In this document: in pieces, positions 6,587 through 26,282 of the stretch
How positions within the stretch are numbered: the first letter of the stretch is position 1
Layout: the number at the start of each line of letters is the position of its first letter
From: Dehalococcoidia bacterium
GTDB taxonomy: Bacteria; Chloroflexota; Dehalococcoidia; JACVQG01; JAHKAY01
Assembly: GCA_030744635.1 (NCBI GenBank)
Contig: JASLQE010000387.1
Span: 1 to 29,017 of the forward strand
DNA: 29,017 bases
Direction: 5' to 3'
Notes under the pieces: model-generated
Told to the model about the DNA's origin: nothing
What the model saw: the letters and a program-made list of their open reading frames with translations, nothing else
Database searches by the model: none
Position numbers and translations under genes: made by a program

Positions 6587-6740
6587 CCCTTCGGACTGGC
6601 TCAGGGCGGCGGTCTCAAAGCCGCCGTGGTGTCTGAAGGACTCTCCGCCTTACGGTTCGAAGGACTCCGGACTCCTTCGGAGAGTCCGATACTTCGTTCG
6701 GACCGGATTCCTACGGAGAACCTGTCGAACCATGAGCGGC
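6587..6740 (+). repeat. REP-like long hairpin (family A) interrupted by an 87-bp hairpin cassette at 6632-6718
   Basis: Host arms TTCG(G)ACTGGCTCA-GGGCGGCGG and CCGCCGTGG-TG^AACCTGTCGAA. The insert aligns without gaps to the reverse complement of 26147-26233 (73/87 identical by hand count). Confidence 0.8.
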
Positions 6741-6814
6741 GAGTCGGGTAAGAAGGTGAGCATGGCCCGGCTGCGGTATCCGTGGAGCATGAATCAAAAT
6801 AAAAGGGGGTGGTC

Positions 6815-7566
6815 ATGAGACTTGAAGGCAAGGTAGCTCTGGTTACAGGGGCGGGGTCTGGCATTGGCAGGGCCATAGCCGTGAAGTTCGCCACGGAGGG
6901 GGCCGCTGTGGTAGTGGGCGATATCAACGAGGAAACAGCGGCGGCAACCGCAGAAAAAGTGCGCTCAGCGGGTGTAGCGGGGCTGTCTATTAAGGCCGAT
7001 GTGTCCAGCACCATGGAGACACAGGACATGGTCGCCAGGGCAGTGGCCGAGCTGGGGCGCATAGACATCCTGGTAAACAATGCGGGTGTCGGGGACTACA
7101 AGCCTTTTCTGGAGATAACGGAGGAGGCCTGGGACCGGTTCTGTCCATTCACCTGAAGGGCGCTTTCAACTGCACCAAAGCGGTGCTTGGCGATATGCTG
7201 GCCCGGCGTAGTGGCTGCATAGTCAACATCTCCTCGCTGGCGGGGACAACCGGCACCCCTTTCCATGTCCACTATTCAGCGGCCAAGGCGGGCATCATTG
7301 GCCTTACCAAGTCCCTGGCCAAAGAGATTGCACGGCACGGTGTTAGGATCAACGCCGTGGCCCCGGGATGGATTGACACCCCCCTGGGCCGCCAGGCCGA
7401 GGAGTACTTCGCCCGGCTGACCTCGCGCAACCGTATAGTAAGACCTCCCCTCGGCGTATCGGGCACGCCGGAAGATATTGCGGCTGCCTGCACCTACCTG
7501 GCGTCCGATGAGGCGGGTTTTGTTACCGGCCAGGTGTTAAGCCCTAACGGGGGGGCCTGGATTTAA
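6815..7566 (+). pseudogene. Short-chain dehydrogenase/reductase (FabG-like), split by a 1-bp deletion near 7137-7140 (possible sequencing error)
   Basis: TGAGSGIG and NNAG lie in ORF 6809-7156. YSAAK and NAVAPG lie in the next frame. Adding one base at CGG-TT-CTG restores WDR[V]LSIHLKGAFNCT. Confidence 0.85.
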
Positions 7567-7606
7567 GGCCGTGCCTCAGCTCTGGTGCGGCACCGGGAGC
7601 TGCCGA

Positions 7607-7635
7607 TTGCCTGTCAGGGCGTGTAGTGCTATGCT
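7607..7635 (+). promoter_or_regulatory. Sigma70-type promoter of the first CoA-transferase
   Basis: TTGCCT-N17-TATGCT with extended TG. Confidence 0.5.
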
Positions 7636-7670
7636 GTGAGGCAAATATTCAAAGAGCAAAGGGGGGTAAG

Positions 7671-8891
7671 ATGCCGGGACCGCTATCGGGAATAAGGATT
7701 CTGGAATGGGCCATCTGGCATGCCGGGCCGGGGGCCAACTATATGCTGGGTGACCTGGGTGCGGATGTGATAAAGATTGAGCAGCCGGAGGTGGGCGACC
7801 CAGAGCGGGGCTACACCCGCCTGGAGGGTTCCCACATTATGGACCCAGACCGCCCCACCGGTATCCTTTTCCATATAACCAACCGTAACAAGAAGAGCGT
7901 CACTATTGACCTCACCAAGGAGGAGGGGCAGCAGATTCTCTACCGGCTGGTGGAGAAGTGCGATGTTTTTCTGCAGAACTTCCGGCCTGGGGTGGCCGCC
8001 CGGCTGGGTGTGGACTACGAGACCCTGAAGAAGTTCAATCCCAAGCTGATATATGTAAATGTCTCCGGCTACGGGCCGAAGGGCCCGGAGAGCGGCCTGC
8101 GGGGTCAGGACTACATAGGCCTGGCCCGCTCCGGCTTCCTCTCCGCAATGCACAGCGGGGATGATGAGCTACCCCATGTCACCGGTGCCATCGCTGACCA
8201 CATGACCTGCACTACAGCCGCCTACGGTATCCTGGCCGCCTTGGTGGCGCGGGAGCGGATGGGCGTCGGCCAGGAAATCCACACCTCCCTTTTCGGTAGT
8301 ATGCTGGGACTGCAGTCGGTGCGTATAGGCCAGACGCTGATGATGGGCCGCGAGCCGGCCCCCCGCCGCCGCCGTGAGATGCTAAACCCCATTTACAACC
8401 ACTACCGTTGCGCCGATGACAAGTGGTTAGCCCTGGCGGTGCTGGCGACGGAACGGGTATGGCCTGATGTGTGTAAGGCCCTGAGCATGGAGGAGCTGGA
8501 GAAAGACCCCCGGTTTGACAGCACGGAGCACCGGGCCGAGAACTGCCGGGAGCTTATAGACCTCCTGGACCACACCTTTGCCGGCAAGCCGCGGGATGAG
8601 TGGCTGAAGCTTCTACGCCAGCACCGGCGCATCATTTGCTCGCCCATACTTGACCCCATGGACCTCCTGGATGACCCCCAGACCATGGAAAACGACTACA
8701 TAGTAGAGGTGGAGGACCAGGAGCTGGGGCGTATCAAGCAGGTGGGATGCCCGGTGACCTTTACCGAGACCCCTGCCAAGGTGCAGGGACCGTCCCCGAT
8801 GTTCGGCCAGCACACCGAGGATGTGCTGTTGGAGGTCGGAGGCTATACCTGGGATGACATATCCCGCTTCCGGGAGGGCGGGGTTATCTAA
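7671..8891 (+). CDS. Class III CoA-transferase (CaiB/BaiF family)
   Basis: PLSGIRILE, LGDLGADVIKIE, NRNKKSVTIDL, QNFRPG, and GAIADH with the catalytic Asp. ATG 7671 follows a purine-rich SD-like run, so it is preferred over 7626. Confidence 0.93.
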   Translation: MPGPLSGIRILEWAIWHAGPGANYMLGDLGADVIKIEQPEVGDPERGYTRLEGSHIMDPDRPTGILFHITNRNKKSVTIDLTKEEGQQILYRLVEKCDVFLQNFRPGVAARLGVDYETLKKFNPKLIYVNVSGYGPKGPESGLRGQDYIGLARSGFLSAMHSGDDELPHVTGAIADHMTCTTAAYGILAALVARERMGVGQEIHTSLFGSMLGLQSVRIGQTLMMGREPAPRRRREMLNPIYNHYRCADDKWLALAVLATERVWPDVCKALSMEELEKDPRFDSTEHRAENCRELIDLLDHTFAGKPRDEWLKLLRQHRRIICSPILDPMDLLDDPQTMENDYIVEVEDQELGRIKQVGCPVTFTETPAKVQGPSPMFGQHTEDVLLEVGGYTWDDISRFREGGVI

Positions 8892-8945
8892 AAGGCCACA
8901 GGGCAGGCGGGTATAGCAAACAGCCCGTCTCCGGCGGGAGCGGAG

Positions 8946-10154
8946 TTACTCTATAACCCTCTCCAGCACCAGGTTCACATACTCCTCCTCGGAGAGGCCC
9001 AGGAGGTCCCGGAGCACCTCCTCGTTGTGCTCCCCCACCAGGGGTGCCCGTGTGATTTCGGAGGGGGTCTCCGAGAAGCGCACCCCATGGGCCTGGGGGC
9101 GGTGGGGGCCTATCTCCGGGTGGTCCAGGAGAGGGAAGTGTTGCCGGTGCTCTAACTGGGGATCCTCGTAGATTTCGGCCATGTCCTCCACCACGCCGGC
9201 GGGGACACCCGCTTTCTGAAGCAGGTGCATGGTATCGTGAGCGGGATGCTCCCGTGTCCAGGTGGATATTGTCCTTTCCAGTTCGTCCTCGTTGTCCTGA
9301 CGGGACTTGAGGGTGGCGAAGTTGGGGTCCGAGGCCAGCTCCGGTCGCTCCATAACCTGGCAGAGGGCCTGCCACTCCGCATCGCTGGTACAGGCGATGG
9401 TCAGCCAGCGGTCCTCCCCCTGGCAGGGGAAAGCCCCGTGGGGGGCAAAATGTGGGTCACGGTTGCCCATACGCACCGCCTCCCGGTTGTTGGCGATACG
9501 GTCCAAGATGATAGGAGCGATGAGCCAGGAGGAGATTTCAAACTGGGAAAGGTCTATATACTGGCCCTTACCGGTGCGGCGGCGGTGGTCCAGGGCAGCG
9601 CTTACGGCCAGTGCACCGAAGTAGGGGGCCACGAAGTCGGGGATGGCACCAAAGGGGGTAACCGGGCCCCTGTCGGGCCAGCCCATTACATGAACCAGCC
9701 CGGCAACCGCCTGAGCCACCGTGCCAGTGCCGGGGTGTCCGGCGTAAGGGCCGGTCTGGCCCAGGTTGGTCAAGCTTATCATCACCAGGTCCGGGTTGAC
9801 CTCCGTGAGGTCATCGTAACCCAGTCCCATGCGCACCATTACCCCGGGGGCGAAGTTCTCCACCACCACATCCGCCCAGGCGGCCAGCTTCCTGCCAAGG
9901 TCTACACCCCGCTCCGTCTTAAGGTTTATGGAGAGGCCCATCTTACTGGTGTTAAGACTGGCAAAGAAACCGCCGCGGTTGAGACCCACCGCGCCATCCC
10001 TAAAGGGTGGCGAGGTGCGCACCGAGTCAGGCCGGGTAGCTGACTCGACATGCACCACGGTGGCCCCGTGGTCCGCCAAGTAGCGGCCGGTCATGGGGCC
10101 TATGCCGAAGTGGGTGAAATCCGCCACTTTAATGCCGTCAAAGATACCTGACAT
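8946..10154 (-). CDS. Class III CoA-transferase (CaiB/BaiF family, BbsF-like catalytic subunit)
   Basis: FDGIKVADF, LADHGATVVHVES, ENFAPG, and GAIPDF with the Asp retained. Confidence 0.93.
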   Translation of the reverse strand: MSGIFDGIKVADFTHFGIGPMTGRYLADHGATVVHVESATRPDSVRTSPPFRDGAVGLNRGGFFASLNTSKMGLSINLKTERGVDLGRKLAAWADVVVENFAPGVMVRMGLGYDDLTEVNPDLVMISLTNLGQTGPYAGHPGTGTVAQAVAGLVHVMGWPDRGPVTPFGAIPDFVAPYFGALAVSAALDHRRRTGKGQYIDLSQFEISSWLIAPIILDRIANNREAVRMGNRDPHFAPHGAFPCQGEDRWLTIACTSDAEWQALCQVMERPELASDPNFATLKSRQDNEDELERTISTWTREHPAHDTMHLLQKAGVPAGVVEDMAEIYEDPQLEHRQHFPLLDHPEIGPHRPQAHGVRFSETPSEITRAPLVGEHNEEVLRDLLGLSEEEYVNLVLERVIE

Positions 10155-10155
10155 G

Positions 10156-11391
10156 CTAAATCACCCCCTGCTGCTTTAGCGCATCTATCTCATCCACAGG
10201 AAGCCCCAACCACCCCCCGTAGACTTCCCGGTTATGCTCACCCACCATGGGCGCTCGTTTTCCGGGCTGCACCGGAGTCGGTCTGGACTGGATAAACGCT
10301 CCAGGATAGGTGATGGAACGACCCAGTTCAGGGTGCTTCACATCCATCCAGTAGCCGCGTGACTGTAGCTGCGGATCATTGATGATATCCGTCATGTCAT
10401 ACACCGGAAGGAGAATAAGACGGCGCTCCAGCGCACCCTGTAGCATCTCATTCTTGGTATGGGTTAGGAAAAAGGCCCCCAGCCTATCCTCCACGGGCTC
10501 CATCCATTCGCGGGTCACTGTGGACATATCCAGGGCTTTCCAGTCTATCCCGCGCAGAAATTCATCGGCCATGCCCTCGCTATCCATCCAGTCCACCAAA
10601 GCTTGGTTCACACGGGCGCCAGTAGCGCCGCCGTATATGGCGAAGCAGATAAAACCGTCCTTACACGGCCATACCTGCCGTTCTGGGATGGCGGCCAGAA
10701 GCTCTCCCCGGAACTGGCCCGAACGTCTGAGTCGGCGCTGATTAATGTCTTGAAAGGCGGGGGCATTAGCACTCAAGCTCACCGAGGACTGCTGGGCTGA
10801 GGCATCCACCCGCTGACCCTTACCGGTGCGTCCTCTGTGGAACAGAGCCATGACCGTGCCAGCAGCTGCCTCGGTGCCAGCGATCGGGTAGGCTATAGGA
10901 AAGCTATCCCGCACTGGGGCTCTATCTGTATCTCCGCATAGGGACATGTAGCCGCTCATGGCCATGGTTACGATATCCGGCCCCTTGTAGTCCTTGTAGG
11001 GGCCTGTAGTACCGAACGGGGTGACGGTAGTGTACACCAGGGTGGGATTGACCTCCGTGAGGGCATCATAGCCCACCCCAATTGAGTCAAGGTATCCGAT
11101 GGGTAAAGACTCAATAACAGCATCGGCCTTTGCTGCCAAGTTCTTTAACAGGTCCCGACCACGCTGGTCCTCCAAATTCAGAGTAACGCCCTGTTTGCCC
11201 TGGCAGAAGGCAAACCAGAATAGGCTTTTATCTGGATGAGGGTCGTCCTGGTAGAAGGGGCCAATCATGCGGGCGGGGTCTCCCCCAGGTCTCTCCACCT
11301 TCACCACCTCAGCGCCCATATCAGCCAGCAGTTTACCGCAGAACAGGCCCTTATCATCGCTGAGGTCTAATATGCGGTATCCGTTGAGCAA
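10156..11391 (-). CDS. Class III CoA-transferase (CaiB/BaiF family, BbsE-like, catalytic Asp absent)
   Basis: LNGYRILDLS, LADMGAEVVKVE, KQGVTLNL. The Asp position reads PIAYP. Its stop is 1 bp from the next ATG. Confidence 0.9.
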   Translation of the reverse strand: MLNGYRILDLSDDKGLFCGKLLADMGAEVVKVERPGGDPARMIGPFYQDDPHPDKSLFWFAFCQGKQGVTLNLEDQRGRDLLKNLAAKADAVIESLPIGYLDSIGVGYDALTEVNPTLVYTTVTPFGTTGPYKDYKGPDIVTMAMSGYMSLCGDTDRAPVRDSFPIAYPIAGTEAAAGTVMALFHRGRTGKGQRVDASAQQSSVSLSANAPAFQDINQRRLRRSGQFRGELLAAIPERQVWPCKDGFICFAIYGGATGARVNQALVDWMDSEGMADEFLRGIDWKALDMSTVTREWMEPVEDRLGAFFLTHTKNEMLQGALERRLILLPVYDMTDIINDPQLQSRGYWMDVKHPELGRSITYPGAFIQSRPTPVQPGKRAPMVGEHNREVYGGWLGLPVDEIDALKQQGVI

Positions 11392-11420
11392 TACACAATC
11401 CTTCAGTAATATTTTGTCAT

Positions 11421-11450
11421 ATGATAAGAGTCATACAAGTAGCTTGTCAA
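11421..11450 (-). promoter_or_regulatory. Sigma70-type promoter of the CoA-transferase pair
   Basis: Minus strand TTGACA-N18-TATCAT in an AT-rich intergenic stretch. Confidence 0.6.
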
Positions 11451-11507
11451 ATTAATACCCTCTACAGGGTAAGGGAGGCCCTGTTAGTCCCACACGCCCT
11501 CCCGGTT

Positions 11508-11566
11508 AGATGGGTCCTGGGGGGTTTTACCTCCCAAAGACAGTCTATCTGGACGGGTAGGTGGGA
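11508..11566 (+). repeat. G/C-run REP-like repeat, family B, uninterrupted degenerate copy
   Basis: AGATGGGTCCTG-GGGGGTTTTACCTCCCAA-N11-CTGGACGGG-TAGGTGGGA, same layout as 4212-4269 and 15381-15581. Confidence 0.55.
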
Positions 11567-11606
11567 GTGAGGGGATCCCGCTTTTGGTTCACGGGCTTGG
11601 AATGGG

Positions 11607-13244
11607 CTACATGGGGCAGGTGAGGTGGCCCAGACGCTCGGTTAGGCGCAGGTTCTCCGAGTAGTCCACGGGCACTTCTATCACCACCGGCTGGCCCATT
11701 CCCATGGCCTGCTGCAGTGCGGGCAGGAGCTGGGAGGCGGCCTCTATACGGAAACCGGGCAGTCCCATGGAGCGGGCCAGCAGGGCGAAGTCCGGGTTGG
11801 TGAAGGAGGTGCCGAAGTCATGCTCATAGCGTTTCATCTCCTTCCAGGAGATGAGGCCGTAGCCGGAGTCCACCCATACCAGAACCACGAAGCCAAGCCC
11901 CAGGCGGCGGGCGGTCTCTAGCTCGGCGGCCGTCATCATAAAGCCCCCGTCACCTACCACGGCCACCACCTGGCGGTGGGGAAAGGCCAGCTTGGCGGCT
12001 ATGGCCCCCGGTAAAGCCACCCCCATGGAGGCCAGACCGTTGGAGATAACCACGGTGTTGGTCTTGGCGGCGGGGAACAGGCGGGCCAGCCATACCTTGT
12101 GGGCACCCACATCGGAGAGCAGAATGTCCTCGTATCCCATGCCGCGGCGGAGGTCGGAGATAATCCGCTGTGGCTTGAGGGGGAAGGAGTCATCGCTGCT
12201 GAAGTCCTCCAACTCCTGGAGGACGAACTCCCTGAGCAGCGCTGGTCCAGAGGGCATCCCCTGGCGCAGGGGACAGGCCGCTGATAGGGCGGAGAGGGAA
12301 TCCCCGATTTCGGCCACAATCTCCACCGCCGGCTGATAGGACTCGTCCACCTCGGCGGGGGTGGTGTCAATATGGATAATCTTCTTATCGCCGCTGCCGT
12401 TCCAGAGGCCGGGCCCGTACTCCACCTGGTCATAGCCCACGGCTATAACCACATCCGCCTTTTCCAGGCCGCACATAACCCAGTCCCTATCGTGCAGGCC
12501 CACGGCGAGCAGGGATAGATAGTCCCGGTAGTCCATAGCGCCCATGCCCATGAAGGTGTTGGCCACGGGCACCCCCAGGTGGTGAGCGAACTCGCTCAGC
12601 CGCCTCCCTGCCCCACGCCGTATGACACCGTTCCCGGCCAGTGCTACGGGATAGCTGGCTTCTTGAATGAGGCGGGCCGCCTGGGCGATTGCGGTTTCGG
12701 CGGGTATGGGGTATACCACCGGGGGGTGCTGCAACGGCTCGCCGTCTGCCCCTTCGTCGGCCACATCCTCGGGCAGCTCTAGGTGCGTGGCCCCGGGCTT
12801 TTCCATGACTGCTTCCTTGAAGGCCTTGCGCACCATCTCCGGAATGGCTTCTCCCCGCTCTATACGGGCGTTCCACTTGGTCACCGGTCGGAATATCTCC
12901 ACCACATCTATGTACTGGTGGGCCTCCTTGTGGGCCTTGCCCAGGGATGCCTGTCCGGTGATGGCCACCAGCGGGGAGCGGTCCAGGTGGGCATTGGCCA
13001 CCCCGGTGAGCAGGTTGGTGGCCCCGGGACCAAGGGTGGAGAAACACACCCCAGGCTTGCCAGTGAGCCGGCCAGTGACGCCGGCCATGAAGGCGGCCCC
13101 GGCCTCGTGGCGGGTGAGAACGAACTTGATGGGGCTGCGGGACAGGGCATCCAGCAGCCCCAGGGTCTCCTCACCCGGGAGGCCGAACAGGTACTTTACC
13201 CCCTCAGCCTCCAGGCACTTTAGCAGCAGCTCAGCGGCTTTCAA
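11607..13244 (-). CDS. ThDP-dependent acetolactate synthase large-subunit-like enzyme
   Basis: FGLPGEE, RHEAGAAFMA, STLGPGATN, GLASMG, GDGGF..VDSGYG ThDP motif. Homology starts at TTG 13244 (MKAAELL), with SD-like GGGTGAG and a promoter upstream. Confidence 0.9.
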   Translation of the reverse strand: MKAAELLLKCLEAEGVKYLFGLPGEETLGLLDALSRSPIKFVLTRHEAGAAFMAGVTGRLTGKPGVCFSTLGPGATNLLTGVANAHLDRSPLVAITGQASLGKAHKEAHQYIDVVEIFRPVTKWNARIERGEAIPEMVRKAFKEAVMEKPGATHLELPEDVADEGADGEPLQHPPVVYPIPAETAIAQAARLIQEASYPVALAGNGVIRRGAGRRLSEFAHHLGVPVANTFMGMGAMDYRDYLSLLAVGLHDRDWVMCGLEKADVVIAVGYDQVEYGPGLWNGSGDKKIIHIDTTPAEVDESYQPAVEIVAEIGDSLSALSAACPLRQGMPSGPALLREFVLQELEDFSSDDSFPLKPQRIISDLRRGMGYEDILLSDVGAHKVWLARLFPAAKTNTVVISNGLASMGVALPGAIAAKLAFPHRQVVAVVGDGGFMMTAAELETARRLGLGFVVLVWVDSGYGLISWKEMKRYEHDFGTSFTNPDFALLARSMGLPGFRIEAASQLLPALQQAMGMGQPVVIEVPVDYSENLRLTERLGHLTCPM

Positions 13245-13264
13245 AAAGATCTCACCCTGACTGA

Positions 13265-13293
13265 ATTGTAAGGTGGCCGGCACCGTATGGCAA
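13265..13293 (-). promoter_or_regulatory. Sigma70-type promoter of the ALS-like gene
   Basis: Minus strand TTGCCA-N17-TACAAT, about 20 nt above TTG 13244. Confidence 0.6.
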
Positions 13294-13376
13294 GTAAGAG
13301 GGAATACCGTCAGGCCTAGTGGCCGTGTATTATGGAGCCCTTCCCGTTCGGGTGCCAGATTCCTCCCCAAAAGCTA

Positions 13377-13404
13377 TTGACTTTCTAAGGATATTTGTTA
13401 TAAT
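13377..13404 (+). promoter_or_regulatory. Near-consensus sigma70 promoter of the GalT-like gene
   Basis: TTGACT-N16-TATAAT with extended TG, followed by SD GAAAGGAG at 13433-13440. Confidence 0.75.
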
Positions 13405-13444
13405 TTGTCAAAACTGGCTTTAAATAATTACCGAAAGGAGTGCG

Positions 13445-14545
13445 CTGGCTGGTTTTCTCAGGGAGTTTCAGGGGCTGACAGCCAGCTTCTCAGTTGACGG
13501 AACCTCCCAGGGCCACCCTTTCCTTACCCGGGTTGACCCCCTTTCCGGCAATGTGGCCAAAATCTCACCGGAGCGTGCCCGCCGCACCATCGGCATATCG
13601 GTAGAGATGGACATGCGGCCAGCAACCCACTGCAGCTTTTGCGATTACGCCACCGCCACCCCCGAGCCTCGGATTCAGCATGCCGGTGGCGCGGTATCCG
13701 TGCCCAATCTGTACCCCTGGGAGAAGTACGACTGGATTACCATTTACCCGCCCTTTTCCCAGCACAAGGTGCTGCTCTCTGACCTCTACTTCGAGGACAT
13801 GGAGATGATGATGGAGTCCTCATACGACCTGGCCGAGCGATGCGCATATGAAGAGGATGTAATCGCTTTCATGGACTTCACCAACTGGGGTGCCTTCGCC
13901 GGAGCCTCTCAGCAGCACCCCCACTCCCAGCGCAAGAGCATCACCTTTATGCCGGATCCGGTTCAAGAGCGGGAGTGGCAGCGGTGTCTGGAAATTGTGG
14001 AGACGCTGGGGCGACATCCCTTTGACATCCTACTGCAGGAGGAGCGGGAGGACGGCCGTCGCCTTATCTTTGACAACGATGTGGTGGTGCTGGCCGCCTT
14101 TGCGCCCACCTGTTCGGACGAGCTGTTGGTCTTTCCCCGTGAGGACCTCTCCCATATTCTGCAGAGCACCCCCGCCCAGCGTAACCATCTTATGCGCCAA
14201 GTGCTGGGTATATTCCCCGCCCTGTTTCTATACCGGGGAATCACCGACCTCAATATCGCCATGCACATGGCCCCCTTCGCCTCTATGGAACCGGCCCGCA
14301 AGTACTTCAGGTGGCATATGCATGTCTACCCCCGCCGCTCCCGCCTGCCCGCCGATAGGGCCGGAGCCGAAATCGGTTTCCAGACCAGCGTGATTGATAC
14401 GCTTCCGGAGACTACCGCCGAGGCCCTGCGCCACTGGTACGAGGCCGGTCCCCGTGAGGAGATGGTGGCCCGGTGCGACGATGGCACCCCCAGCCCGCTG
14501 CTGGTGCGGGAGCTGCGCCGTATCTCCAACGGCAACGGCCACTAA
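13445..14545 (+). CDS. GalT-like (galactose-1-phosphate uridylyltransferase/HIT superfamily) nucleotidyltransferase, probable CTG start
   Basis: CSFC, VPNLYP, NWGAFAGASQQHPHSQ (HxHxQ), WHMHVYPR. The frame is open upstream of GTG 13553 and encodes RVDPLSG..KISPERARR, like the GalT N-terminus. Confidence 0.8.
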   Translation: MAGFLREFQGLTASFSVDGTSQGHPFLTRVDPLSGNVAKISPERARRTIGISVEMDMRPATHCSFCDYATATPEPRIQHAGGAVSVPNLYPWEKYDWITIYPPFSQHKVLLSDLYFEDMEMMMESSYDLAERCAYEEDVIAFMDFTNWGAFAGASQQHPHSQRKSITFMPDPVQEREWQRCLEIVETLGRHPFDILLQEEREDGRRLIFDNDVVVLAAFAPTCSDELLVFPREDLSHILQSTPAQRNHLMRQVLGIFPALFLYRGITDLNIAMHMAPFASMEPARKYFRWHMHVYPRRSRLPADRAGAEIGFQTSVIDTLPETTAEALRHWYEAGPREEMVARCDDGTPSPLLVRELRRISNGNGH

Positions 14546-14565
14546 GCCTTCAGCCACACCCGGTT

Positions 14566-14595
14566 TTGACGCTCCTCTGACTCCTGTGCCAGAAT
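14566..14595 (+). promoter_or_regulatory. Possible sigma70-type promoter of the V4R-like gene
   Basis: TTGACG-N18-CAGAAT with extended TG. SD AGGAGGAG precedes ATG 14639. Confidence 0.45.
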
Positions 14596-14638
14596 AGCAT
14601 TAGCCAGCAACCAGATTTCAGCCGACAGGAGGAGCGCT

Positions 14639-15289: not shown

Positions 15290-15380
15290 CGCCTTATTGT
15301 GGGCACGATTGCCCTCCACAGGCTTCCCCAAGGAGTCCACAGGGCGGACAGTACGGCGGCCCAGAGGGTGTCTTGCCTGA

Positions 15381-15581
15381 AGGGGAGGCCTGTCCGATGA
15401 TGCTTTGCTCATCGGACTCCGATAGGCGAAGCACTATCGGAGGGGGGCTTGTCCCCCCCAGAAAACAAAACTGGGCGGGTCTGCCCTGCGGACTCTCCTA
15501 AGGAATCCGGTCGGAACGGAGTATCGGTCCGAAGGACTCTCCGCCTTGCGGAGTCCGATACTCCGTTCCGACCGGGTGGGC
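15381..15581 (+). repeat. Family B REP-like repeat carrying two hairpin inserts (15393-15442 and about 15481-15573)
   Basis: Removing the inserts gives AGGGGAGGCCTG-GGGGGCTTGTCCCCCCCA-N10-CTGGGCGGGT-GGGTGGGC. Contains a perfect 21-bp inverted repeat at 15507-15527/15555-15575. Lies between convergent genes. Confidence 0.75.
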
Positions 15582-15591
15582 TAAAGCAGAG

Positions 15592-17539: not shown

Positions 17540-17600
17540 TATGTGCCTCCTTCTCTATTCCCCTGAACGGGTTAGCCGTAGGCCCATACCGTCTGGTGTT

Positions 17601-19166: not shown

Positions 19167-19221
19167 GTATTGATACCTCCTAAAGCCAGACCTTATCGTT
19201 ACCGTTAAGAATCTGGCCTAA

Positions 19222-19250
19222 ATTATGCTCATTCCGGCATTCTGTGTCAA
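19222..19250 (-). promoter_or_regulatory. Sigma70-type promoter of the acyl-CoA ligase operon
   Basis: Minus strand TTGACA-N17-CATAAT. Confidence 0.7.
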
Positions 19251-19394
19251 CGCTACCGGGGCATGGCGTAGGCTTTCCCGCACACCCTTCCCCCCGTACT
19301 TGATGTCTATCCCCACACTACATAGTCCACTGGCGGATAAGCACGGATGATGCGGCTGCCACAAGGCCCCCCCAGCTTTAATTGCCAGCCTAAA

Positions 19395-19423
19395 TTGAAG
19401 GCAGCAGGCGATTGGTGTAGAAT
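19395..19423 (+). promoter_or_regulatory. Sigma70-type promoter of the his operon
   Basis: TTGAAG-N17-TAGAAT, ending 11 nt before the hisZ ATG. Confidence 0.55.
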
Positions 19424-19434
19424 TACCACTCGGT

Positions 19435-20640
19435 ATGGAGAAGTGCCGTGGCATGCGCGATATGCTCCCACAGGACATGCGACAGTTCCGCCGTGTTGAG
19501 GACCAGTTCCGGCAGTGCTGTGTTCAGTGGGGCTACCAGGAGGTAAGGACGCCCCTGCTGGAGTACCTGCACCTGTTCACCGCCACTGGCACCCTTACAC
19601 CGGATATGCTCAACCGGGTGTATTCCTTCCTGGACTGGGACGGCTGGAGCGGGGAGAGGGTGGTGCTGCGTCCGGATGGCACCATTCCCGCTGCACGGCT
19701 GTATATCACCGAGATGGCCCAACGCACCACCGCTAGGCTTTTCTACGTTCAGGATGTACTCTCCTTCGGGGCCACCGGCACGGAGTCCCGTGAGAAGTGG
19801 CAGGCCGGGGTGGAGGTGATGGGGGGCCGGTCTCCTCAGGCAGAGGTGGAGCTGGTGTCCCTGGCCCTGGAGGTGCTGGAGGGCTTGGGCCTGAAGCCTG
19901 AGCTACGGCTGGGCCACATGGGGTTGCTGCGCTCCCTTCTGGAGGAGTTGGAGGTGACGGAGGAGGAGGTGGTGGACCGCTTTACCGCTCAGGAGGGCCT
20001 GCTATGGGAGAGGCTGCGGGACTCCCGTCCCGAGATGGGGGAGGCCCTGGCCCTGGCGAAGCTGGAGGGCCGGTCACCGGGCTTCCTGGAGAACCTGGGC
20101 TCCGTCCTATTGCCCCATCTGCCTATCCTGCGGCAGCCCCTGGAGGAGTTCTCGGCCATCGCCAGGCTGCTCACTTCGCTGGACTGCCCCTATGCGATAG
20201 ACCTGGGTCTGGGGAGCGGCTTTGAGTACTACACCGGAGCGGTGTTCCACTTCTATTGCGGGGATGTGCGGGTAGGGGGTGGTGGCCGCTACGACAATCT
20301 GATACCTCTGCTGGGCGGCAAAGCTGTGCCCGCCACGGGGTTTGCCCTGTATGTAGACCGGATAATGTCCATGGTGCCTGGACCGGTATCCGGACCACCG
20401 GTGCTGGTGCAGGCCGATGAAGGCTGCTGGCCGTGGGCCTTCTCCCTGGCCGGCGAGATGCGCGCCCAGGGCATCGCCGCCGAGATGGCGGCGGGTGAGC
20501 CGATGGACCATCCGGGAGTCTCCGTGATGGTCCAGGAGGGGCCTGTTTATATTCTGCCGGGCAAGGGCCGCTTTGCCTCACCGGCGGAGGTAGTGCGGGT
20601 GTTGAAAGAGGGAGGGGATGCTGAAATTAGCCCTGCCTAA
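19435..20640 (+). CDS. hisZ: ATP phosphoribosyltransferase regulatory subunit (HisRS paralogue)
   Basis: RGMRDMLP, WGYQEVRTP, LRPDGT, QAGVE, EYYTG.VF, GGGRYDNL. It lacks the HisRS FRxERPQ motif and overlaps the hisG start. Confidence 0.85.
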   Translation: MEKCRGMRDMLPQDMRQFRRVEDQFRQCCVQWGYQEVRTPLLEYLHLFTATGTLTPDMLNRVYSFLDWDGWSGERVVLRPDGTIPAARLYITEMAQRTTARLFYVQDVLSFGATGTESREKWQAGVEVMGGRSPQAEVELVSLALEVLEGLGLKPELRLGHMGLLRSLLEELEVTEEEVVDRFTAQEGLLWERLRDSRPEMGEALALAKLEGRSPGFLENLGSVLLPHLPILRQPLEEFSAIARLLTSLDCPYAIDLGLGSGFEYYTGAVFHFYCGDVRVGGGGRYDNLIPLLGGKAVPATGFALYVDRIMSMVPGPVSGPPVLVQADEGCWPWAFSLAGEMRAQGIAAEMAAGEPMDHPGVSVMVQEGPVYILPGKGRFASPAEVVRVLKEGGDAEISPA

Positions 20641-21997
20641 GGGGCGGCTACAGGCCGCCTCCGGCTCTTATTTGGAACAGGCGGGATGGGGCCTTGAAGA
20701 CTACCAGCCCGGCTCACGCTCCTATCGTCCCACCACTGCCTTCCCCGGTGTGGAGGCCAAGGTCTTTCAGGAGAGGGACATCCCGGTCCAGGTGGCCATA
20801 GGCAACTACGATATCGGGATATGTGGTCTGGACTGGGTGGAGGAGCTCCTGGCCCGCTACCCTCAGAGCCCCCTGGTAAAGGTCATAGAGCTTGGCTATG
20901 GTGGGGGACAGCTCTTCCTGGCCTCCAGCAGCCTGTCTCCATGGGGCTCCGCAGCGGACCTGAGCCGGAATGGTGCGCTGCTGGTGCTGGCCGGAGAATA
21001 CCCCAATTTGGCGTGGACGGCCGCCATGCGGCTACGGCTGAAGCGTTTCCGGGTCTTTCCTCTGTGGGGTGCGGTGGAGGTGTACCCCCCTGAGGACGCT
21101 GACCTGGTGGTGGTGCGCTCACCATCGGCATCCCGCCTGAAGGAGCGGGGCCTGGTGCCCCTGTTCCCCCTGTGTCACACTACGGCATATCTCATTGCCA
21201 ACCGGGATAGCTGGCAGAGCAAAGATATGGCCGGGGCTATATCCAGCCTGCTGGAGGCTTCCCCTTCGGTGGACAGCCTTCAGGGACCTCGGGTGGAGTC
21301 TTCGGACTGGCTGCCCCTGTACGGGGGCAACTGGCTAAGGCTGGCCCTACCCGACGGCCACCAGAAGGAGCCTTCGGTGGACTTCCTGCGTAAAGCCGGG
21401 CTGGAGGTGGCTGGCTATGCCTCAGGGAAGAGCCGCCCCGACCTGGGTGTGGAGGGGGTGGCCACCAAGGTCATCCGGCCCCAGGATATGCCGCTCCAGG
21501 TGGCCTCCGGCAACTTTGATGTTGCCCTTACCGGCAAGGACTGGCTGCGCGACCACCTGTGCCAGTTCCCTTCCAGCCCCGTGGAGCAGTTGCTGGAGCT
21601 GGATTTCGGCTGGGTGCGGGTGGTGGCCGTGGTCTGCGGCGATGTGCCCGTCTCCTCGGCGGCGGAGCTCAGGGGCCTGATGGAGTCGGGTCGGATGGGC
21701 GGGCTACGGGTGGCCACGGAGTATGTCAACATAGCCGATAAGTTTGCCCGGGACCATCACCTGGGTCACTACCGCATCATACCCACCTGGGGGGCCACGG
21801 AGGCATTCCTCCCCGAAGATGCCGACCTCCTGATAGAGAACACCCAGACCGGCCAGACCCTGGCCCGGCACGGTCTGAAGATAATTGATGTGCTCTTCGA
21901 GTCCACTGCCTGTATCATCGGCTCCCGGGATATCGCCCCCCAACGCAGGGGGCAGCGGGATGCCCTTTTGCAGCGGTTGGCCGGGGCCGTGGGGTGA
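20618..21997 (+). CDS. hisG: ATP phosphoribosyltransferase with two tandem short-form HisG catalytic units
   Basis: Unit 1: LALPKGRL...DIPVQVAIGNYDIGICGLD. Unit 2 from about 21335: LALPDGH...RPQDMPLQVASGNFDVALTGKD...TGQTL. No ACT-like tail. Confidence 0.88.
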   Translation: MLKLALPKGRLQAASGSYLEQAGWGLEDYQPGSRSYRPTTAFPGVEAKVFQERDIPVQVAIGNYDIGICGLDWVEELLARYPQSPLVKVIELGYGGGQLFLASSSLSPWGSAADLSRNGALLVLAGEYPNLAWTAAMRLRLKRFRVFPLWGAVEVYPPEDADLVVVRSPSASRLKERGLVPLFPLCHTTAYLIANRDSWQSKDMAGAISSLLEASPSVDSLQGPRVESSDWLPLYGGNWLRLALPDGHQKEPSVDFLRKAGLEVAGYASGKSRPDLGVEGVATKVIRPQDMPLQVASGNFDVALTGKDWLRDHLCQFPSSPVEQLLELDFGWVRVVAVVCGDVPVSSAAELRGLMESGRMGGLRVATEYVNIADKFARDHHLGHYRIIPTWGATEAFLPEDADLLIENTQTGQTLARHGLKIIDVLFESTACIIGSRDIAPQRRGQRDALLQRLAGAVG

Positions 21998-22007
21998 GGG
22001 GTATACG

Positions 22008-22757
22008 GTGCCACCACTTTGCCTCCACCTGAGTCTGGCCCGGGATGCTTTATTCCAACTGGGGGATAGCCCCGGGGGAGGCCGTGGCCGCTACTTGATC
22101 GGTGCCACCCTGCCGGATATTCATATGATGTCGGACTTCGTCCGTGAGCATACCCACTATATGGACCTGGCGCAGCGGGAGGAGGGGGGCGAGGAGATTG
22201 CCCGCTTCTTCAAGGCCAACCCGCACTTGGCCCATGAAAGCAAAAACCCACCTACCCGTGCCCTGGTGGCCGGCTATCTGTCCCACCTGGTGACCGATAG
22301 CACCTGGATAGCTCGTATCTACCACCCCTACTTTGGGCCCGAGTCTTCGCTGTCAGGTGAACCCCTGGCCAACCTGCTGGACCGGTTGCTACAGTTTGAG
22401 CTGGACCGGAGGGAGCAGGAGGACATGGCCGCCATGGCGGCCATGGTCAAGAACATCGGGCTGGTATCCTGGGACAAGGAGGCGGCCCTGTTTGATGAGG
22501 ATAGCCTCATGCGCTGGCAGACCTTTGTCATGGATGCGGCCGTACGCCCGCATACCTGGGACCGCTTCCCAACATTCGTCCGCCACTATGTGGCACGGCA
22601 TGGAAATCTCAGAGAGGACCAGGTGAAGCGGTTCTTGTCCGACATCCCTGCCAGGCTGTCCTGGGTGCTGGAGCATGTGCCGCCGGAGGCTTTGGTCGCT
22701 TTTCGCCAGGGGGCGCTCCAGGGCTCGCTCCGGTTGGCGCGGGAGCGTGGGTGGTGA
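22008..22757 (+). CDS. Zinc-dependent phospholipase C-like (PLC/P1 nuclease fold) protein embedded in the his operon
   Basis: Start GTG 22008 after GAGGGG. N-terminal MPP..LH, then GATLPD, THY and GYLSHLVTD..W. Its stop overlaps the hisD GTG. Confidence 0.7.
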   Translation: MPPLCLHLSLARDALFQLGDSPGGGRGRYLIGATLPDIHMMSDFVREHTHYMDLAQREEGGEEIARFFKANPHLAHESKNPPTRALVAGYLSHLVTDSTWIARIYHPYFGPESSLSGEPLANLLDRLLQFELDRREQEDMAAMAAMVKNIGLVSWDKEAALFDEDSLMRWQTFVMDAAVRPHTWDRFPTFVRHYVARHGNLREDQVKRFLSDIPARLSWVLEHVPPEALVAFRQGALQGSLRLARERGW

Positions 22758-24071
22758 GGAACATAGGGATAGAGGAGGCCCGGCGTCGGTTCCTGGGCCG
22801 CAGCCCCCTGGATATGCTCCCCTTTCCCGCTCCAGTGGCCCAGCGCCTGGAGGAGGTTTTCGGCCCGGGGGTCTCTCCCCTGGAGGCGGTGCGGCGCACA
22901 ATCACCGAAGTCCGGGACCGGGGGGATGAGGCAGTGGCCGAGCTATCCTGGAAGCTGGACGGGGTGGAGGTGCCCCGGGTGGAGGTGCCCCCTGGGCAGG
23001 TAACGGCCGCCCGGGATGGCATCCCTCCGGCCCTGGCCGCCGCCATGAGGCTGGCGGCGGACCGCATAAGGACTTTCCATGAGAGGGGCCGCCCCGAGGA
23101 CTTCTTCGACCCCCAGGAAGGGGTGGGCCGGAAAATGGTGCCGATGGACCGGGTGGGCATATATGTGCCCGGCGGCCGGGCGGCATACCCCTCCACAGTG
23201 CTCATGACGGCCATCCCCGCCCGCATCGCCGGGGTGGAAGAGGTGATAGTAGCCACCCCACCCCAGGCCGGCGGAGTGGCCCCGCTGGTGCTGGCGGCCT
23301 GCGCCCTGGCCGGGGTGGACCGCGTGTTCGCCATGGGGGGCGCTCAAGCCATAGCCGCCTTGGCCTACGGCACCGCTTCGGTTCCCGTCGTGGACACGGT
23401 GCGGCCCCGGCACCCTGTTCGTCATGCTGGCCAAACGGGAGGTCTTTGGCCAGGTAGACATAGATGGCTTCTATGGACCTACGGAGACGGTGGTGGTGGC
23501 CGATGATACCGCTGACCCTGCCCTGTGTGCCGCCGAGCTTTTGGCCCAGGCAGAGCACGACCCCCTGGCATCAGCCCTGCTCCTCACCCCCTCGGTAAGC
23601 GTGGCTAAGGGGGTGGTCCGGGAGTCGGAGGCCCAGCTTGAGGGACTGGAACGGCGCGACATCGCTGGCCAGTCGTTGGAAGGGCGGGGCGCCGTTATCA
23701 AGGTGGATGACCTGTCCCAGGCCCTTGATTTCGTCAACTCCTACGCCCCGGAGCACCTTACCCTGCTAATGGCCGATGCCGAAGGGTTCGCCGCCGGGGT
23801 GCGCCACACCGGGTGCATCTTCCTGGGGGGTGGGGAGGCCTTCGGCGACTATGTGGCCGGTCCCAGCCATGTGCTGCCCACCGGGGGTAGCGCCCGCTTC
23901 TCCTCCCCCCTTGGGGTGGAGTCTTTCCTGAAGGTAACCAGCGTGGTGGCCCTCAACAGTAATATAATGGAGGCGACCGCGGCGGCGGCGGATGAGCTTG
24001 CCCGCGCCGAGGGCCTCACCGCCCACGCCGCCGCCATACAGAGAATGTTGAGAAGGAAGGGCCCAAGGTGA
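22751..24071 (+). pseudogene. hisD: Histidinol dehydrogenase, split by an apparent 2-bp deletion near 23399 (possible sequencing error)
   Basis: VGIYVPGG.A.YPSTVLM and GGAQAIAALAYG lie in the first frame. CGPG.LFVMLAKR, ID..GPTE, YAPEHL and GDYVAGPSHVLPTG lie in the second. Confidence 0.9.
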
Positions 24072-25174
24072 CCTGGGAGAAGATGCTGCGTCCCCATCTG
24101 TCCGCTCTGGAACCCTACCAGCCCATCGTGCCCCTGGAGGTGCTGGCAAAGGAGGCGGGCAAGACGGTGGCCGAGGTCATCAAGCTGGATGGCAACGAGA
24201 ACCCCTACGGCCACTCCCCCCGCGTTAACCGCGCAATGGCCGAATACCCCTTTTTCCATATCTATCCGGACCCCGACCAGCGGCAGCTACGGCAGGCCCT
24301 GGAGGGCTATGTGGGGCTGGGTGCGGAGCATATCGTGGTCGGCGCGGGCAGCGACGAGATAATAGACCTGCTGCTACGGCTCTTCCTGGAGCCTGGGGAC
24401 CAGGTAATTAACCTGACTCCCACCTTCGGCATGTACCCCTTCAGCACCCACATCTGCGGAGGAGAGGTGGTGGAGGTGCCCCGGGACGAGGCCTTTGAGA
24501 TAGACCTGGAGGAGATGAGGCGGAAGGTGAGGCCGAGGGTCAAAGCGGTCTTCGTGGCCTCCCCCAACAACCCCAGCGGCAACCTGGCCACACAGGAGCA
24601 GGTGCTGGGGCTGCTGGAGATGGGGCTGCTGGTAGTGGTGGATGAGGCCTATTACGAGTTCGCCGGGGAGACAGCGATCCCCTTGGTGAAAGAGCACCCC
24701 AACCTGGTGGTGCTGCGCACCTTCAGCAAGTGGGCGGGACTGGCCGGGCTGCGGGTGGGCTATGCCATGTGCCACCCCGGACTGGTGGAGCACATCATGC
24801 GCATCAAGCCGCCCTACAACCTGAATGTGGCCGCACAGGTGGCGGCCCTGGAGTCCCTGAAGGACCTGGAGTACCTTCAGGCCAGGGTGCGGGACATCGT
24901 GGAGGAGCGGGAGCGTCTCTACCGCCTCCTTCAGGGGTTGGATTCTCTGCACCCCTTTCCCTCCCGGGCCAACTTCATCCTGTGCTCCCTGAAGGGATGG
25001 GATGCCAGGGAGGCGTATCTGCGACTCCGGGGGGAGGGAATATTCCTGCGCTACTTCAGCAACCCGCGGATGAGCCACTGCCTGCGTATCAGCGTGGGCA
25101 AGCCGGAGCAAAGCGATGCCGCTCTGGCAGCGTTGAACCAGGCTGAAAAAGAGCTGGCAGGACGGCACAAATGA
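24068..25174 (+). CDS. hisC: Histidinol-phosphate aminotransferase
   Basis: KLDGNENPYG, GAGSDEII, SPNNPSG, DEAYYEF, RTFSKWAGLAGLRVGY. GTGA overlap with hisD. Confidence 0.96.
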   Translation: MTWEKMLRPHLSALEPYQPIVPLEVLAKEAGKTVAEVIKLDGNENPYGHSPRVNRAMAEYPFFHIYPDPDQRQLRQALEGYVGLGAEHIVVGAGSDEIIDLLLRLFLEPGDQVINLTPTFGMYPFSTHICGGEVVEVPRDEAFEIDLEEMRRKVRPRVKAVFVASPNNPSGNLATQEQVLGLLEMGLLVVVDEAYYEFAGETAIPLVKEHPNLVVLRTFSKWAGLAGLRVGYAMCHPGLVEHIMRIKPPYNLNVAAQVAALESLKDLEYLQARVRDIVEERERLYRLLQGLDSLHPFPSRANFILCSLKGWDAREAYLRLRGEGIFLRYFSNPRMSHCLRISVGKPEQSDAALAALNQAEKELAGRHK

Positions 25175-25196
25175 TGGTTGCTATCTCCTACGGAAA

Positions 25197-25395
25197 GAAA
25201 GAGCGGAGTTCCCCGATGCATCGAGGCCGGGGGCTTGGGCGTCATTGTGAATTGCCTAAGGAAGGCGCCATGCTGTCCGCCTTGCGGACTCCGACACTCT
25301 GTTCGGAGAGCTTGTTGAAGCATGAGCGCTGCGCTGAGCTTGTCGAAGTACGCCGTTGTCGCGCACCCTTCGACTGGCTCAGGGTGGCGGATGAC
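25197..25395. repeat. Cluster of family A REP-like units between hisC and hisB, one carrying a 33-bp hairpin insert (25276-25308)
   Basis: CCATGCTG^[33 bp]^AGCTTGTTGAAGCATG, an intact GCTGAGCTTGTCGAAG (25333-25348), and the inverted unit CCCTTCGACTGGCTCAGGGTG (about 25366-25386). Confidence 0.75.
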
Positions 25396-25417
25396 TTTAT
25401 CAAACAGGGGCAAAGTG

Positions 25418-26017
25418 ATGTCTGATGTAGTTGATGCCCCCCGCAAGGCCGCGGTGCGCCGCCAGACCGCCGAGACCACCATCAGCGTGGAGCTGGACCT
25501 GGACGGACAGGGCCGCTGGCAGATTACGACCGGGGTGACCCTTTTCGACCACTTCCTGGCCCAGCTTGCCAGACACGGTCTCTTTGACATAAACATCTCC
25601 GCCACCGGAGACGAACAGCACCACCTGGTAGAGGATGTGGGGCTGTGCCTGGGCCGGGCCTTTGACCAGGCCCTGGGGGAGAGGCGGGGCATCGTCCGCA
25701 TGGGCAACGCCATTGTGCCGATGGACGAATCGCTGGCCCTGGTGGCCGTGGACATCAGCGGCCGTGGATATGCGGTGATAGACCCCGCCCTGGAGGCGGC
25801 GGTGGGGGGGATAGAGGCGGACATGGTACGCCACTGCCTGCACTCCCTGGCCCAAGAGGCCAGGTTCAACCTGCATGTCCAGATACTGAAGGGCAGCAAC
25901 GACCATCATCGGGCCGAGGCCGCCTTCAAGTCTCTGGCCCGCGCCCTCAAGGCCGCCACCCGATTTGACGACCGCCTGGGCGGCACTGTCCCCAGCACCA
26001 AGGGCACCATCGGGTAG
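25418..26017 (+). CDS. hisB: Imidazoleglycerol-phosphate dehydratase (monofunctional)
   Basis: [44 protein letters not shown]. No N-terminal phosphatase domain. Start set at ATG 25418. Confidence 0.95.
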
Positions 26018-26127
26018 CAGAGAAGTAATCCGTCCAAACATGTATTGCGAAAAAGGGCTTATCTCGTGAAACTCAGCTTGGCATACATGCTGGAACTAGT
26101 ACTAGGTTGCTTAAGTAAGCGTAACCA

Positions 26128-26282
26128 TGATATTCTTCGCTTTGCTCTCCGAAAGAGACCGGTTCGAACGGGGTGCCGGACTCTCCGAAGGAGTCCGGAG
26201 TCTTTCGGACCGCAAGGCGGAGAGTCCTTCGGGCAGAGTGACATTTGGAACCTCTGTCACCCTGAGCGTAACGAATGGTCTC
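26128..26282 (-). repeat. REP-like hairpin (family A variant) interrupted by the 87-bp cassette at 26147-26233
   Basis: Minus strand TTCGTTACGCTCA-GGGTGACA...TGTCACTC-TG^[87 bp]^AGCAAAGCGAA. Confidence 0.8.

Follow-up and report, generated by a model that had tools for sequence, protein, structure and literature searches.

Nested hairpin cassettes of 27-93 nt in a Dehalococcoidia-like genome: probable ultra-small mobile DNA with a core shared across phyla

Introduction

The mobile repeats that the DNA cassettes described here most resemble are the small dispersed repeats (SDRs) of the Nostocaceae. Elhai et al. in 2008 reportedly described SDR1-8 as units of 21-27 nucleotides (nt) with hairpin potential, which are said to lie inside other small repeats and inside themselves, to vary in presence or absence between close relatives, and to occur often among heptamer tandem repeats. 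To our knowledge, no enzyme is known for SDRs. In this study, we analysed a family of hairpin cassettes represented in contig C387 (29,017 nt, the whole stretch of DNA studied, hereafter the window) of a metagenome-assembled genome (MAG) from a marine Dehalococcoidia-like bacterium (the source MAG, G000; 1.79 Mb, 401 contigs, 61% GC, 84.6% complete). A first-pass annotation of the window had listed four such cassettes inside repetitive extragenic palindromic (REP)-like repeats, and had read them as non-autonomous elements that target these repeats and are moved in trans by a HUH/Y1 enzyme.

Insertion sequences of the IS200/IS605 type and palindrome-associated transposable elements (PATEs) are moved by the Y1 HUH transposase TnpA via single-stranded circles. 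IS608 TnpA and integron integrases choose the strand by means of conserved mismatches. In REP superfamilies, a GTAG or CGTC tag stands at the foot of the hairpin (PMC3733652). For Rickettsia palindromic elements (RPEs), Ogata et al. 2000 is cited in passages of PMC3733652, and the SDR study of Elhai et al. is cited in passages of PMC3116915, PMC3733652, and PMC5861425. SDR5 inserts into HIP1, and SDRs were reported to be absent outside the Nostocaceae (PMC5861425).

The results below make it probable that the cassettes form a family of ultra-small mobile DNA elements, which are non-autonomous and fold into hairpins, and on whose folded single strand a trans-supplied protein would act.

Orthologous loci with and without the cassettes

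The comparison genomes were two of the same genus, G001 (86% complete) and G002, with a DNA identity to the source MAG of about 82-96% in aligned regions, one of the same family (G003), and one of the same order (G004). Five orthologous loci in congeners or other relatives were precisely empty, each pair differing by exactly the element. Where the window carries a 50-nt element (15393-15442) and a 93-nt element (15480-15572), G002:C273 reads GGCCTG|GGGGC...CTGGGCGGG|CGGGTGG, and G001:C66 is likewise empty. The single-copy gene mutS (G000:C222:7392-7418) contains 27 extra bases in frame, which add VRRTPDSFG to the protein; since G001, G002, G003, and G004 all lack them, this copy is an insertion in the G000 lineage. 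Furthermore, a 27-mer upstream of a gene on G000:C77 is absent from G001, and the 50-mer at G000:C297:6534 is absent from G002:C288, which reads GCCAGG|GGGTGAGGG. These five loci bear out the proposal of non-autonomous mobile elements with exact ends.

Filled orthologs were also found, with few substitutions, for the 87-mer of window positions 6632-6718 (at G001:C66) and for the 50-mer of C297:4235 (in G001). The filled sites have diverged together with their flanks, which indicates inherited genomic DNA and not artefacts. No clean ortholog was obtained in G001 or G002 for the cassettes at 25276 and 26147.

The same loci bear on a static reading, in which the cassettes are mosaic repeats like the bacterial interspersed mosaic elements (BIMEs) of E. 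coli and their presence or absence results from recombination or gene conversion among host repeats. Many copies do lie in repeated hosts, whole host-plus-insert units have been amplified, and the copies of one terminator-like host, termed host C, mostly bear the same composite in the same orientation. However, the single-copy mutS gained exactly one 27-nt unit, unlike a static mosaic, and neither this insertion nor that upstream of the C77 gene has a repeated host. In addition, the 27-mer occurs in unrelated genes of other phyla, and the same 87-mer occupies two host families. We regard a static mosaic as very improbable.

Target sequence and strand

The minimal unit of the family is the 27-mer TCCGAAGGACTCCGGACTCCTTCGGAG, a hairpin with a 9-bp stem (DNA fold -8.5 to -9.1 kcal/mol, z -3 to -4). 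Because of two central C-C mismatches, the 27-mer is strand-asymmetric. The GTDB species representatives were scanned with the 24-nt core of this unit, and at least 114 stretches matched. Target-site statistics were calculated from 44 dereplicated (independent) contexts, and the asymmetry was counted in 126 exact-core copies with the source MAG included; these counts hold among the matches listed. G was found at position -1 in 42 of the 44 contexts (p ~7e-22) and T or G at -2 (KG) in 36, and a purine-purine pair followed the element in 34. Beyond the searched core, the full 27-nt unit was present in 41/44. The target is approximately YKG^RR, often CGG^AG, and is also present in the loops of host REP-like repeats. 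Of the insertion "after TG" claimed at first, the G stands, whereas TG specifically does not and widens to KG. Target duplication was none or at most 1 nt. The absence of duplication that had been claimed holds for anything longer than 1 nt; a 1-nt duplication of G is possible, because the ends can be placed in two ways, one base apart (G|TCCG...CGGA|G).

The mismatches had the CC/GG form in 126/126 exact-core copies, never CG or GC. The flanking G..G lay on the C..C strand in 40 of 42 contexts, so that the orientation relative to the target strand is fixed and insertion is strand-specific; a symmetric double-strand cut-and-paste would yield both orientations. Like classical MITEs (miniature transposable elements with inverted repeats) of the DDE kind, the units have terminal inverted repeats, namely 9 bp (TCCGAAGGA/TCCTTCGGA) in the 27-, 60-, and 87-nt forms and 5 bp (TCCGA/TCGGA) in the 33- and 50-nt forms. 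Unlike MITEs, they show no duplication of 2 bp or more and have the fixed orientation just described.

The conserved mismatches, tied as they are to a fixed insertion strand, lead us to infer that a trans-supplied protein acts on a folded single strand. Movement would pass via this folded strand of the element, which the protein would recognise and cut or join in a manner like the "peel and paste" of IS200/IS605 or the recombination of integron attC sites. Strand-specific hairpin recognition, as HUH enzymes perform it, fits the anatomy best. By analogy, the cassettes may also be compared with integron attC and CTX-phage attP, which tyrosine recombinases use as folded single strands and in which mismatched or extrahelical bases set the strand. 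In contrast to the cassettes, attC is not conserved in sequence, flanks gene cassettes, and recombines at attI or attC.

Structure of the units and cassettes of the window

The cassette family is the most abundant repeat of the source MAG, with about 52 loci by BLAST, and supplies its top 15-mers (up to 19 copies). Given these counts and a reversed-pattern control that yielded 0 matches in 401 Chloroflexota genomes, the family is far beyond chance. The units begin with TCCG and end with CGGAG, and the foot TCCG...CGGA is found in all of them. Their size classes are 27, 33, 50, 51, 60, 87, and 93 nt, and pairing of left-end and right-end words across the source MAG gave discrete lengths of 27, 51, 60, 63, and 87 nt with no smear. 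Each of the 33- and 50-nt units consists of a pair of neighbouring hairpins, [TCCG..CGGA]C[TCCG..CGGA]G, in which every base is covered.

The 60-mer (about 12 copies) is a 27-mer whose apex holds a 33-nt two-hairpin unit. When 33 nt after TCCGAAGGACT are taken out, the exact 27-mer is obtained, and the insert read on the bottom strand starts with TCCG, ends with CGGAG, and sits at CGG^AG. The 87-mer, of which the source MAG has three copies (two in the window), corresponds to a 60-mer plus an additional 27-mer at GCGG^AG, and the 93-mer is a 33-nt unit with a 60-mer at an internal CGG^AG (93 = 33+60). A 51-nt form (C363 and C396) consists of the left 24 nt of the 60-mer and a nested 27-mer; it looks like the use of an alternative right end. 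CGG^AG is present at the 3' end of the units and where hairpins join, and the apex of the 27-mer carries it on the bottom strand. Since the target thus lies within the units themselves, they insert into one another to give the 60-, 87-, and 93-nt composites. The three 87-mers and the 60-mers are found in different hosts; composites retain functional outer ends and move as wholes. As whole molecules, the 87-mers fold weakly (z -1.2 to -2.0, versus -3 to -8.5 for the 27-, 33-, 50-, and 93-nt elements), and this lack of unusual stability fits composites, not a designed structure. As for the origin of the 60-mer, derivation from the 33-mer at 25276 dropped into a 27-mer was ruled out: its inner unit has the form [hairpin]C[hairpin]G on the bottom strand and is not the reverse complement of the 25276 copy.

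In the window, the four cassettes annotated at first were confirmed with their coordinates and junctions, and a fifth of 93 nt was added. The first, an 87-nt composite at 6632-6718 (plus strand), lies between GGTG and AACCTGTCGAA. In the reconstruction 87 = 60+27 and 60 = 27+33, the halves of its outer 27-mer are 6632-6642 and 6703-6718, the 33-nt two-hairpin unit is 6643-6655 plus 6683-6702 on the bottom strand, and the nested 27-mer (TTCGAAGGACTCCGGACTCCTTCGGAG), inserted at GCGG^AG, is 6656-6682 on the plus strand. The host is a REP-like hairpin repeat on the plus strand, whose left part (..GGCTCAGGGCGGCGG..CCGCCGTGGTG) occupies 6587-6631 and whose right part (AACCTGTCGAACCATGAGCGG) occupies 6719-6745; it recurs at G000:C10:3061 with a 60-nt element at the identical point.

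The second and the fifth cassettes, both on the plus strand, share one locus. The 50-nt two-hairpin element at 15393-15442, inserted at CCTG^GGGGG, has the [TCCG..CGGA]C[TCCG..CGGA]G form and gives, when folded, a pair of perfect hairpins side by side (-17 kcal/mol, z -7.2). The host C repeat follows at 15443-15479 (plus strand) as a terminator-like GGGGGGCTTGTCCCCCCC hairpin, an A-rich spacer, and CTGGGCGGG, and it resumes as CGGGTGGG at 15573-15580. Between these parts stands the 93-nt composite (15480-15572; fold -31.6 kcal/mol, z -8.5). Its outer 33-nt two-hairpin unit comprises 15480-15494 and 15555-15572, and the 60-nt element inside it (15495-15554, plus strand) has its 5' 27 nt inverted relative to the canonical 60-mer. 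The uninterrupted forms of host C that had been pointed out earlier were found at about 4212-4260 and 11508-11565. A tRNA gene (4061-4133, minus strand; Rfam 68 bits) adjoins the former copy.

The 33-nt two-hairpin element at 25276-25308 (plus strand), TCCGCCTTGCGGA-C-TCCGACACTCTGTTCGGA-G, interrupts the loop of a host hairpin between GCTG and AGCTTGTTGAAG (GCTG^AGCTTG). Its fold has a z of -5.0, and sister copies in the like host type are found at G000:C104:1777 and C236:4314. The adjoining REP-like host repeats (25309-25391, plus strand) contain AGCTTGTTGAAGCATG, the uninterrupted GCTGAGCTTGTCGAAG at 25331-25346, also as first annotated, and CCCTTCGACTGGCTCAGGGTGGCGG.

The second 87-nt composite, at 26147-26233 on the minus strand, lies between TCTG and AGCAAAGCGAA; its insertion point in a host repeat of the GTCACYCTGAGCGAAG type is TCTG^AGCAAAGCGAAG. 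Sequence and size-class reconstruction place its nested 27-mer at 26183-26209 (minus strand). The host repeat, of the GTCACCCTGAGCG type and on the minus strand, flanks it at 26234-26282 and 26125-26146. At the same CTG^AG point, this host type bears elements of 27, 51, and 60 nt on G000:C173, C363, C396, and C390. Between them, the two 87-mers (6632-6718 and 26147-26233) make up an inverted repeat of 90 nt with 84% complementarity.

Among the genes of the window, a short-chain dehydrogenase gene (6809-7566) is broken into the open reading frames (ORFs) 6809-7156 and 7183-7566, apparently by a frameshift of 1 nt near 7137-7160. The sequence goes on in the other frame as ..DRVLSIHLKGAFNCTKAVLGDML..; the break is a sequencing error or marks a pseudogene.

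Insertion into repeats and genes

In the source MAG, the elements are nested in copies of themselves and in three families of REP-like hosts, namely GTCACCCTG^AGCGAAGG, CATGCTG^AGCTTGTCGAAGCATG, and the host C terminator repeat, which are hit where they read YKG^RR. The position of cassettes inside other repeats was accordingly as the first-pass annotation had it, and it extends to cassettes inside each other. REP-like hosts are frequent targets because their loops hold the short target, e.g. CTG^AG. Specific targeting of such hosts, which had also been proposed, was not borne out: the 27-mer is found in unique sequence and in genes, and its flanks are not generally palindromic. In 48 dereplicated copies, the flanks paired over 2.75 bp versus 2.65 bp in shuffled pairs. 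A rule that insertion is always in hairpin loops was ruled out by this comparison.

In-frame copies of the 27-mer were found in Pfam-confirmed genes, namely mutS of the source MAG, cysS of a Dehalococcoidia MAG, and hutU (urocanase) of Ferruginibacter. Further in-frame copies, likewise confirmed by Pfam, lie in the central loop of a major facilitator superfamily (MFS) transporter, a hybrid histidine kinase, a C-terminal domain of the type IX secretion system (T9SS), and the C-terminal tail of gyrA. The 27-mer comprises nine codons and is stop-free in all six frames, for which a rough estimate gives a chance of about 0.1, only mildly improbable. In this respect the cassettes are like RPEs, palindromic selfish DNA standing in frame in functional protein-coding genes. 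Unlike the cassettes, RPEs are about 100-150 bp long and confined to Rickettsia, and neither nesting nor a YKG^RR target is known for them.

Tandem heptamers adjoin the hutU copy (L122:2100-2200, Ferruginibacter MAG) on both sides, (AAGTTTG)n at one end and (AGGTTTG)n at the other. Because heptamers flank the 27-mer, the in-frame insert of hutU is longer than 27 nt, which recalls the heptamer context of the cyanobacterial SDRs. Two paralogs of a single MAG (L080:216 and L115:2706), whose proteins have a T9SS C-terminal sorting domain, carry the 27-mer at the same place in this domain, ..FYRLQ-VRRTPDSFG-AGDF..; either it was copied with the paralog or the same site was struck twice. A second repeat of the source MAG, with 8-12 copies, ends with ..GGATGTGTCACTAATGTACTGAACGAGTAC (e.g. 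C299:5480-5519), and the C299 copy abuts a cassette. Its upstream part reads by eye like the C-terminus of an integrase core (..YNTIRPHQALGYLTPQQY..), and the repeat is probably an IS3/IS481-type end that breaks the assembly.

Distribution of the 27-mer

Among the matches listed, the 27-mer occurs in Chloroflexota (Dehalococcoidia, Ktedonobacterales, and Chloroflexia), in Bacteroidota (Chitinophagaceae, Cyclobacteriaceae, Mucilaginibacter, and Ferruginibacter), and in MAGs of Nitrospirota, Methylomirabilales, Peregrinibacteria, and Poribacteria. Its core is letter-identical across at least six phyla, with the same ends. The 27-mer is rare and its distribution patchy (5 of 401 Chloroflexota genomes; 4 of 41 relatives), and neither the viral contigs of IMG/VR nor the plasmids of PLSDB nor the phages of INPHARED contained a copy. 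One larger host repeat holds almost all copies in the MAGs of Chitinophagaceae and Ktedonobacterales, so that the copy number there reflects amplification of the host repeat. Host repeats of the types GTCACCCTGAGCGAAGG.., ..GAGCCTGTCGAACCATGA.., and CCCTCTCC..GGAGAGGG..GGTGAGGG recur across phyla (L070-L183 and G000) and may represent another tier of small repeats that are widely shared. With gathering and E-value thresholds, the only Rfam match obtained with the cassettes was a tRNA. Neither the 27-mer nor its six translated peptides or the host-repeat peptides had a match in the literature searched.

These data were also considered in the light of a quite different explanation, in which the 27-mer is under selection as a functional site (terminator, RNA hairpin, or binding site of a protein) or is an artefact of sequencing or assembly. 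The hairpin is stable, often intergenic and beside terminator-like hairpins, and has been seen only in MAGs. A functional site is at odds with its occurrence in both orientations, inside coding frames, and with the Rfam result. An artefact is opposed by orthologous copies that have diverged between two MAGs, by words of the window locus in more than 10 public runs of several studies, including seawater metagenomes, and by the presence of the 27-mer in long-read and short-read assemblies alike. Both variants seem to us hardly tenable.

Search for an enzyme and evidence against mobility in trans

Several results weigh against the reading of the cassettes as elements mobilised in trans. PF01797 (Y1) had no match in G000, G001, G003, or G041, the last a copy-rich 2.8-Mb Dehalococcoidia MAG, and PF01548 (IS110) was absent from G000, G001, and G041. 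PF04986 (Y2/IS91) had no match in five carriers, G000, G001, and G041 included, a result of little weight because 14 control genomes also matched none. Enrichment analysis of the gene neighbourhood in 114 loci of 8 kb returned only common families, such as SDR genes (in the sense of short-chain dehydrogenases), hydrolases, and ABC ATPases. The carriers were all MAGs, with no isolate, among the matches listed, and where the host is itself a repeat, host amplification or gene conversion could have multiplied the copies in place of transposition of the units themselves. The strict motif CKG^AG was found in only 9 of the 44 contexts. Moreover, no population-level empty or filled alleles were seen in the Logan contigs of public runs, in which no joint matched a cassette boundary; such alleles are not visible there because public contigs break at cassettes.

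Loci that could hold the mobilising gene were inspected directly. In four other carriers of the 27-mer (G042-G045), 20 of 28 Y1 matches were fetched, and none had the motif within about 1.5 kb. G002 holds a complete IS200/IS605-type element (L010, G002:C137:1-3182) with a tnpA of 133 aa and an adjoining 377-aa ORF, a putative tnpB. Its end hairpins read CYGYCAGCTAAAGCAGRCRG / CAGCTAAAGCAG, not TCCG..CGGA, and it is not flanked by the cassette motif. A Y1 gene like that of a REP-associated tyrosine transposase (RAYT) was found in G025, a distant genome of the Dehalococcoidia class, between two putative trp-operon genes (L011, G025:C1:459166-462495). This gene is flanked by GTAAGGACG / GTAGGGACG hairpins, not by cassettes, an arrangement that looks like a classical REP-RAYT one. 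No autonomous parent with far-apart left and right halves was detected in the source MAG, all pairs being 27-87 nt apart, and the genes between two 27-mer copies in L071 belong to the his operon. Hence, the HUH/Y1 genes flanked by cassettes that the first-pass annotation suggested looking for were found neither among the 20 fetched loci nor at the IS200/IS605 element of G002, and its HUH/Y1 enzyme acting in trans is left without genomic support.

These observations have to be set against the possibility that the cassettes are IS200/IS605 mini-elements (PATEs) or REP/REPIN repeats, moved by a Y1 HUH transposase (TnpA or RAYT) that is elsewhere in the genome or has since been lost. The cassettes are indeed like IS200/IS605 elements and PATEs in that they lack target duplication, insert 3' of a short motif, have imperfect one-strand hairpins with conserved asymmetry at both ends, and show precise empty sites. 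They are like REPs, REPINs, and BIMEs in being short GC-rich palindromes with a conserved 4-nt foot, in clustered mosaics, in high copy number, and in the model of an enzyme acting in trans. In addition, the assemblies are incomplete (70-86%), the same-genus G002 has an IS200/IS605 copy, and HUH genes have been proposed to be transient in genomes and later lost (bioRxiv 10.1101/279083). On the other hand, the Y1 family is missing from three carriers, one of them copy-rich (G000, G001, and G041), no autonomous parent has cassette ends, and the Y1 genes of G002 and G025 belong to CAGCTAAAGCAG hairpins and GTAGGGACG REPs, respectively. Unlike in IS200/IS605 and PATEs, the cassette hairpins reach the termini with no spacer or guide segments, and a whole unit of 27 nt is far below the minimal IS608 ends. 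Where REPs have a GTAG or CGTC tag (PMC3733652), the cassettes have the foot TCCG; moreover, they flank no RAYT, they are not only extragenic but also inside genes, and their sequence is shared across phyla instead of being lineage-specific. We therefore consider a Y1 transposase unlikely as the mover; the HUH idea is mechanistically attractive but unsupported.

The empty searches for Y1, Y2, and IS110 enzymes also favour a spread without any enzyme, in which hairpins stall replication and template switching or microhomology copying takes place between a donor and a target with shared flanks (..KG, AG..). Strong hairpins are obstacles to replication, and the flanks of donor and target agree in 2-3 nt to the left and to the right. 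Such copying, however, would be expected to leave ragged junctions and donor flank, whereas the five empty and filled pairs differ by exactly the unit, and it leaves the letter-perfect conservation across phyla and the strict strand asymmetry unexplained. An enzyme-free spread is in our view improbable, more so than a Y1 mover.

Discussion

No known transposase accounts for the movement of the cassettes. In comparison with known mobile repeats, the SDRs provide the closest parallel: the two share a small hairpin unit (here 27 nt with a 9-bp stem), presence or absence that varies between close relatives (here by precisely 27 nt), nesting in themselves and in other small repeats, a short target motif, and the lack of a known enzyme, and the hutU copy (L122) lies within heptamer tandem repeats. 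The cassettes differ in unusually clean rules and in the cross-phylum core. Their termini (TCCG..CGGAG) are defined, they have the YKG^RR target, strand asymmetry, and additive nesting, and they stand in frame in housekeeping genes. The sequences of the two families seem unrelated, and the 27-mer is letter-identical in at least six phyla. As for IS200/IS605 mini-elements, REP/RAYT, RPEs, and MITEs, the cassettes deviate from each of them in one or more defining features.

With some reserve, at somewhat under even chances, we suggest that the cassettes constitute a class of mobile DNA not described before, which is ultra-small (27-93 nt), strand-specific, and self-nesting, with a 27-nt core shared across at least six phyla and found in frame in essential genes. 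Its mover would be a new hairpin-specific nuclease or recombinase or a co-opted housekeeping DNA enzyme, not a recognisable Y1, Y2, or IS110 enzyme.

How DNA elements of about 25 bases move has been a standing question since the cyanobacterial repeats of 2008. The present family makes this problem tractable through its exact ends, short target, fixed strand, additive nesting, and insertions dated by congeners. The cassettes also bear on MAG quality, for short-read assemblies break at every copy. They are a source of insertions and deletions in proteins as well, having added nine residues to proteins such as MutS, cysteinyl-tRNA synthetase (CysRS), and urocanase. The identity of the core in distant bacteria points to either recent horizontal spread or recognition by a highly conserved protein. 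The mobilising protein, if found, would represent a minimal sequence- and structure-specific system for the insertion of single-strand DNA.

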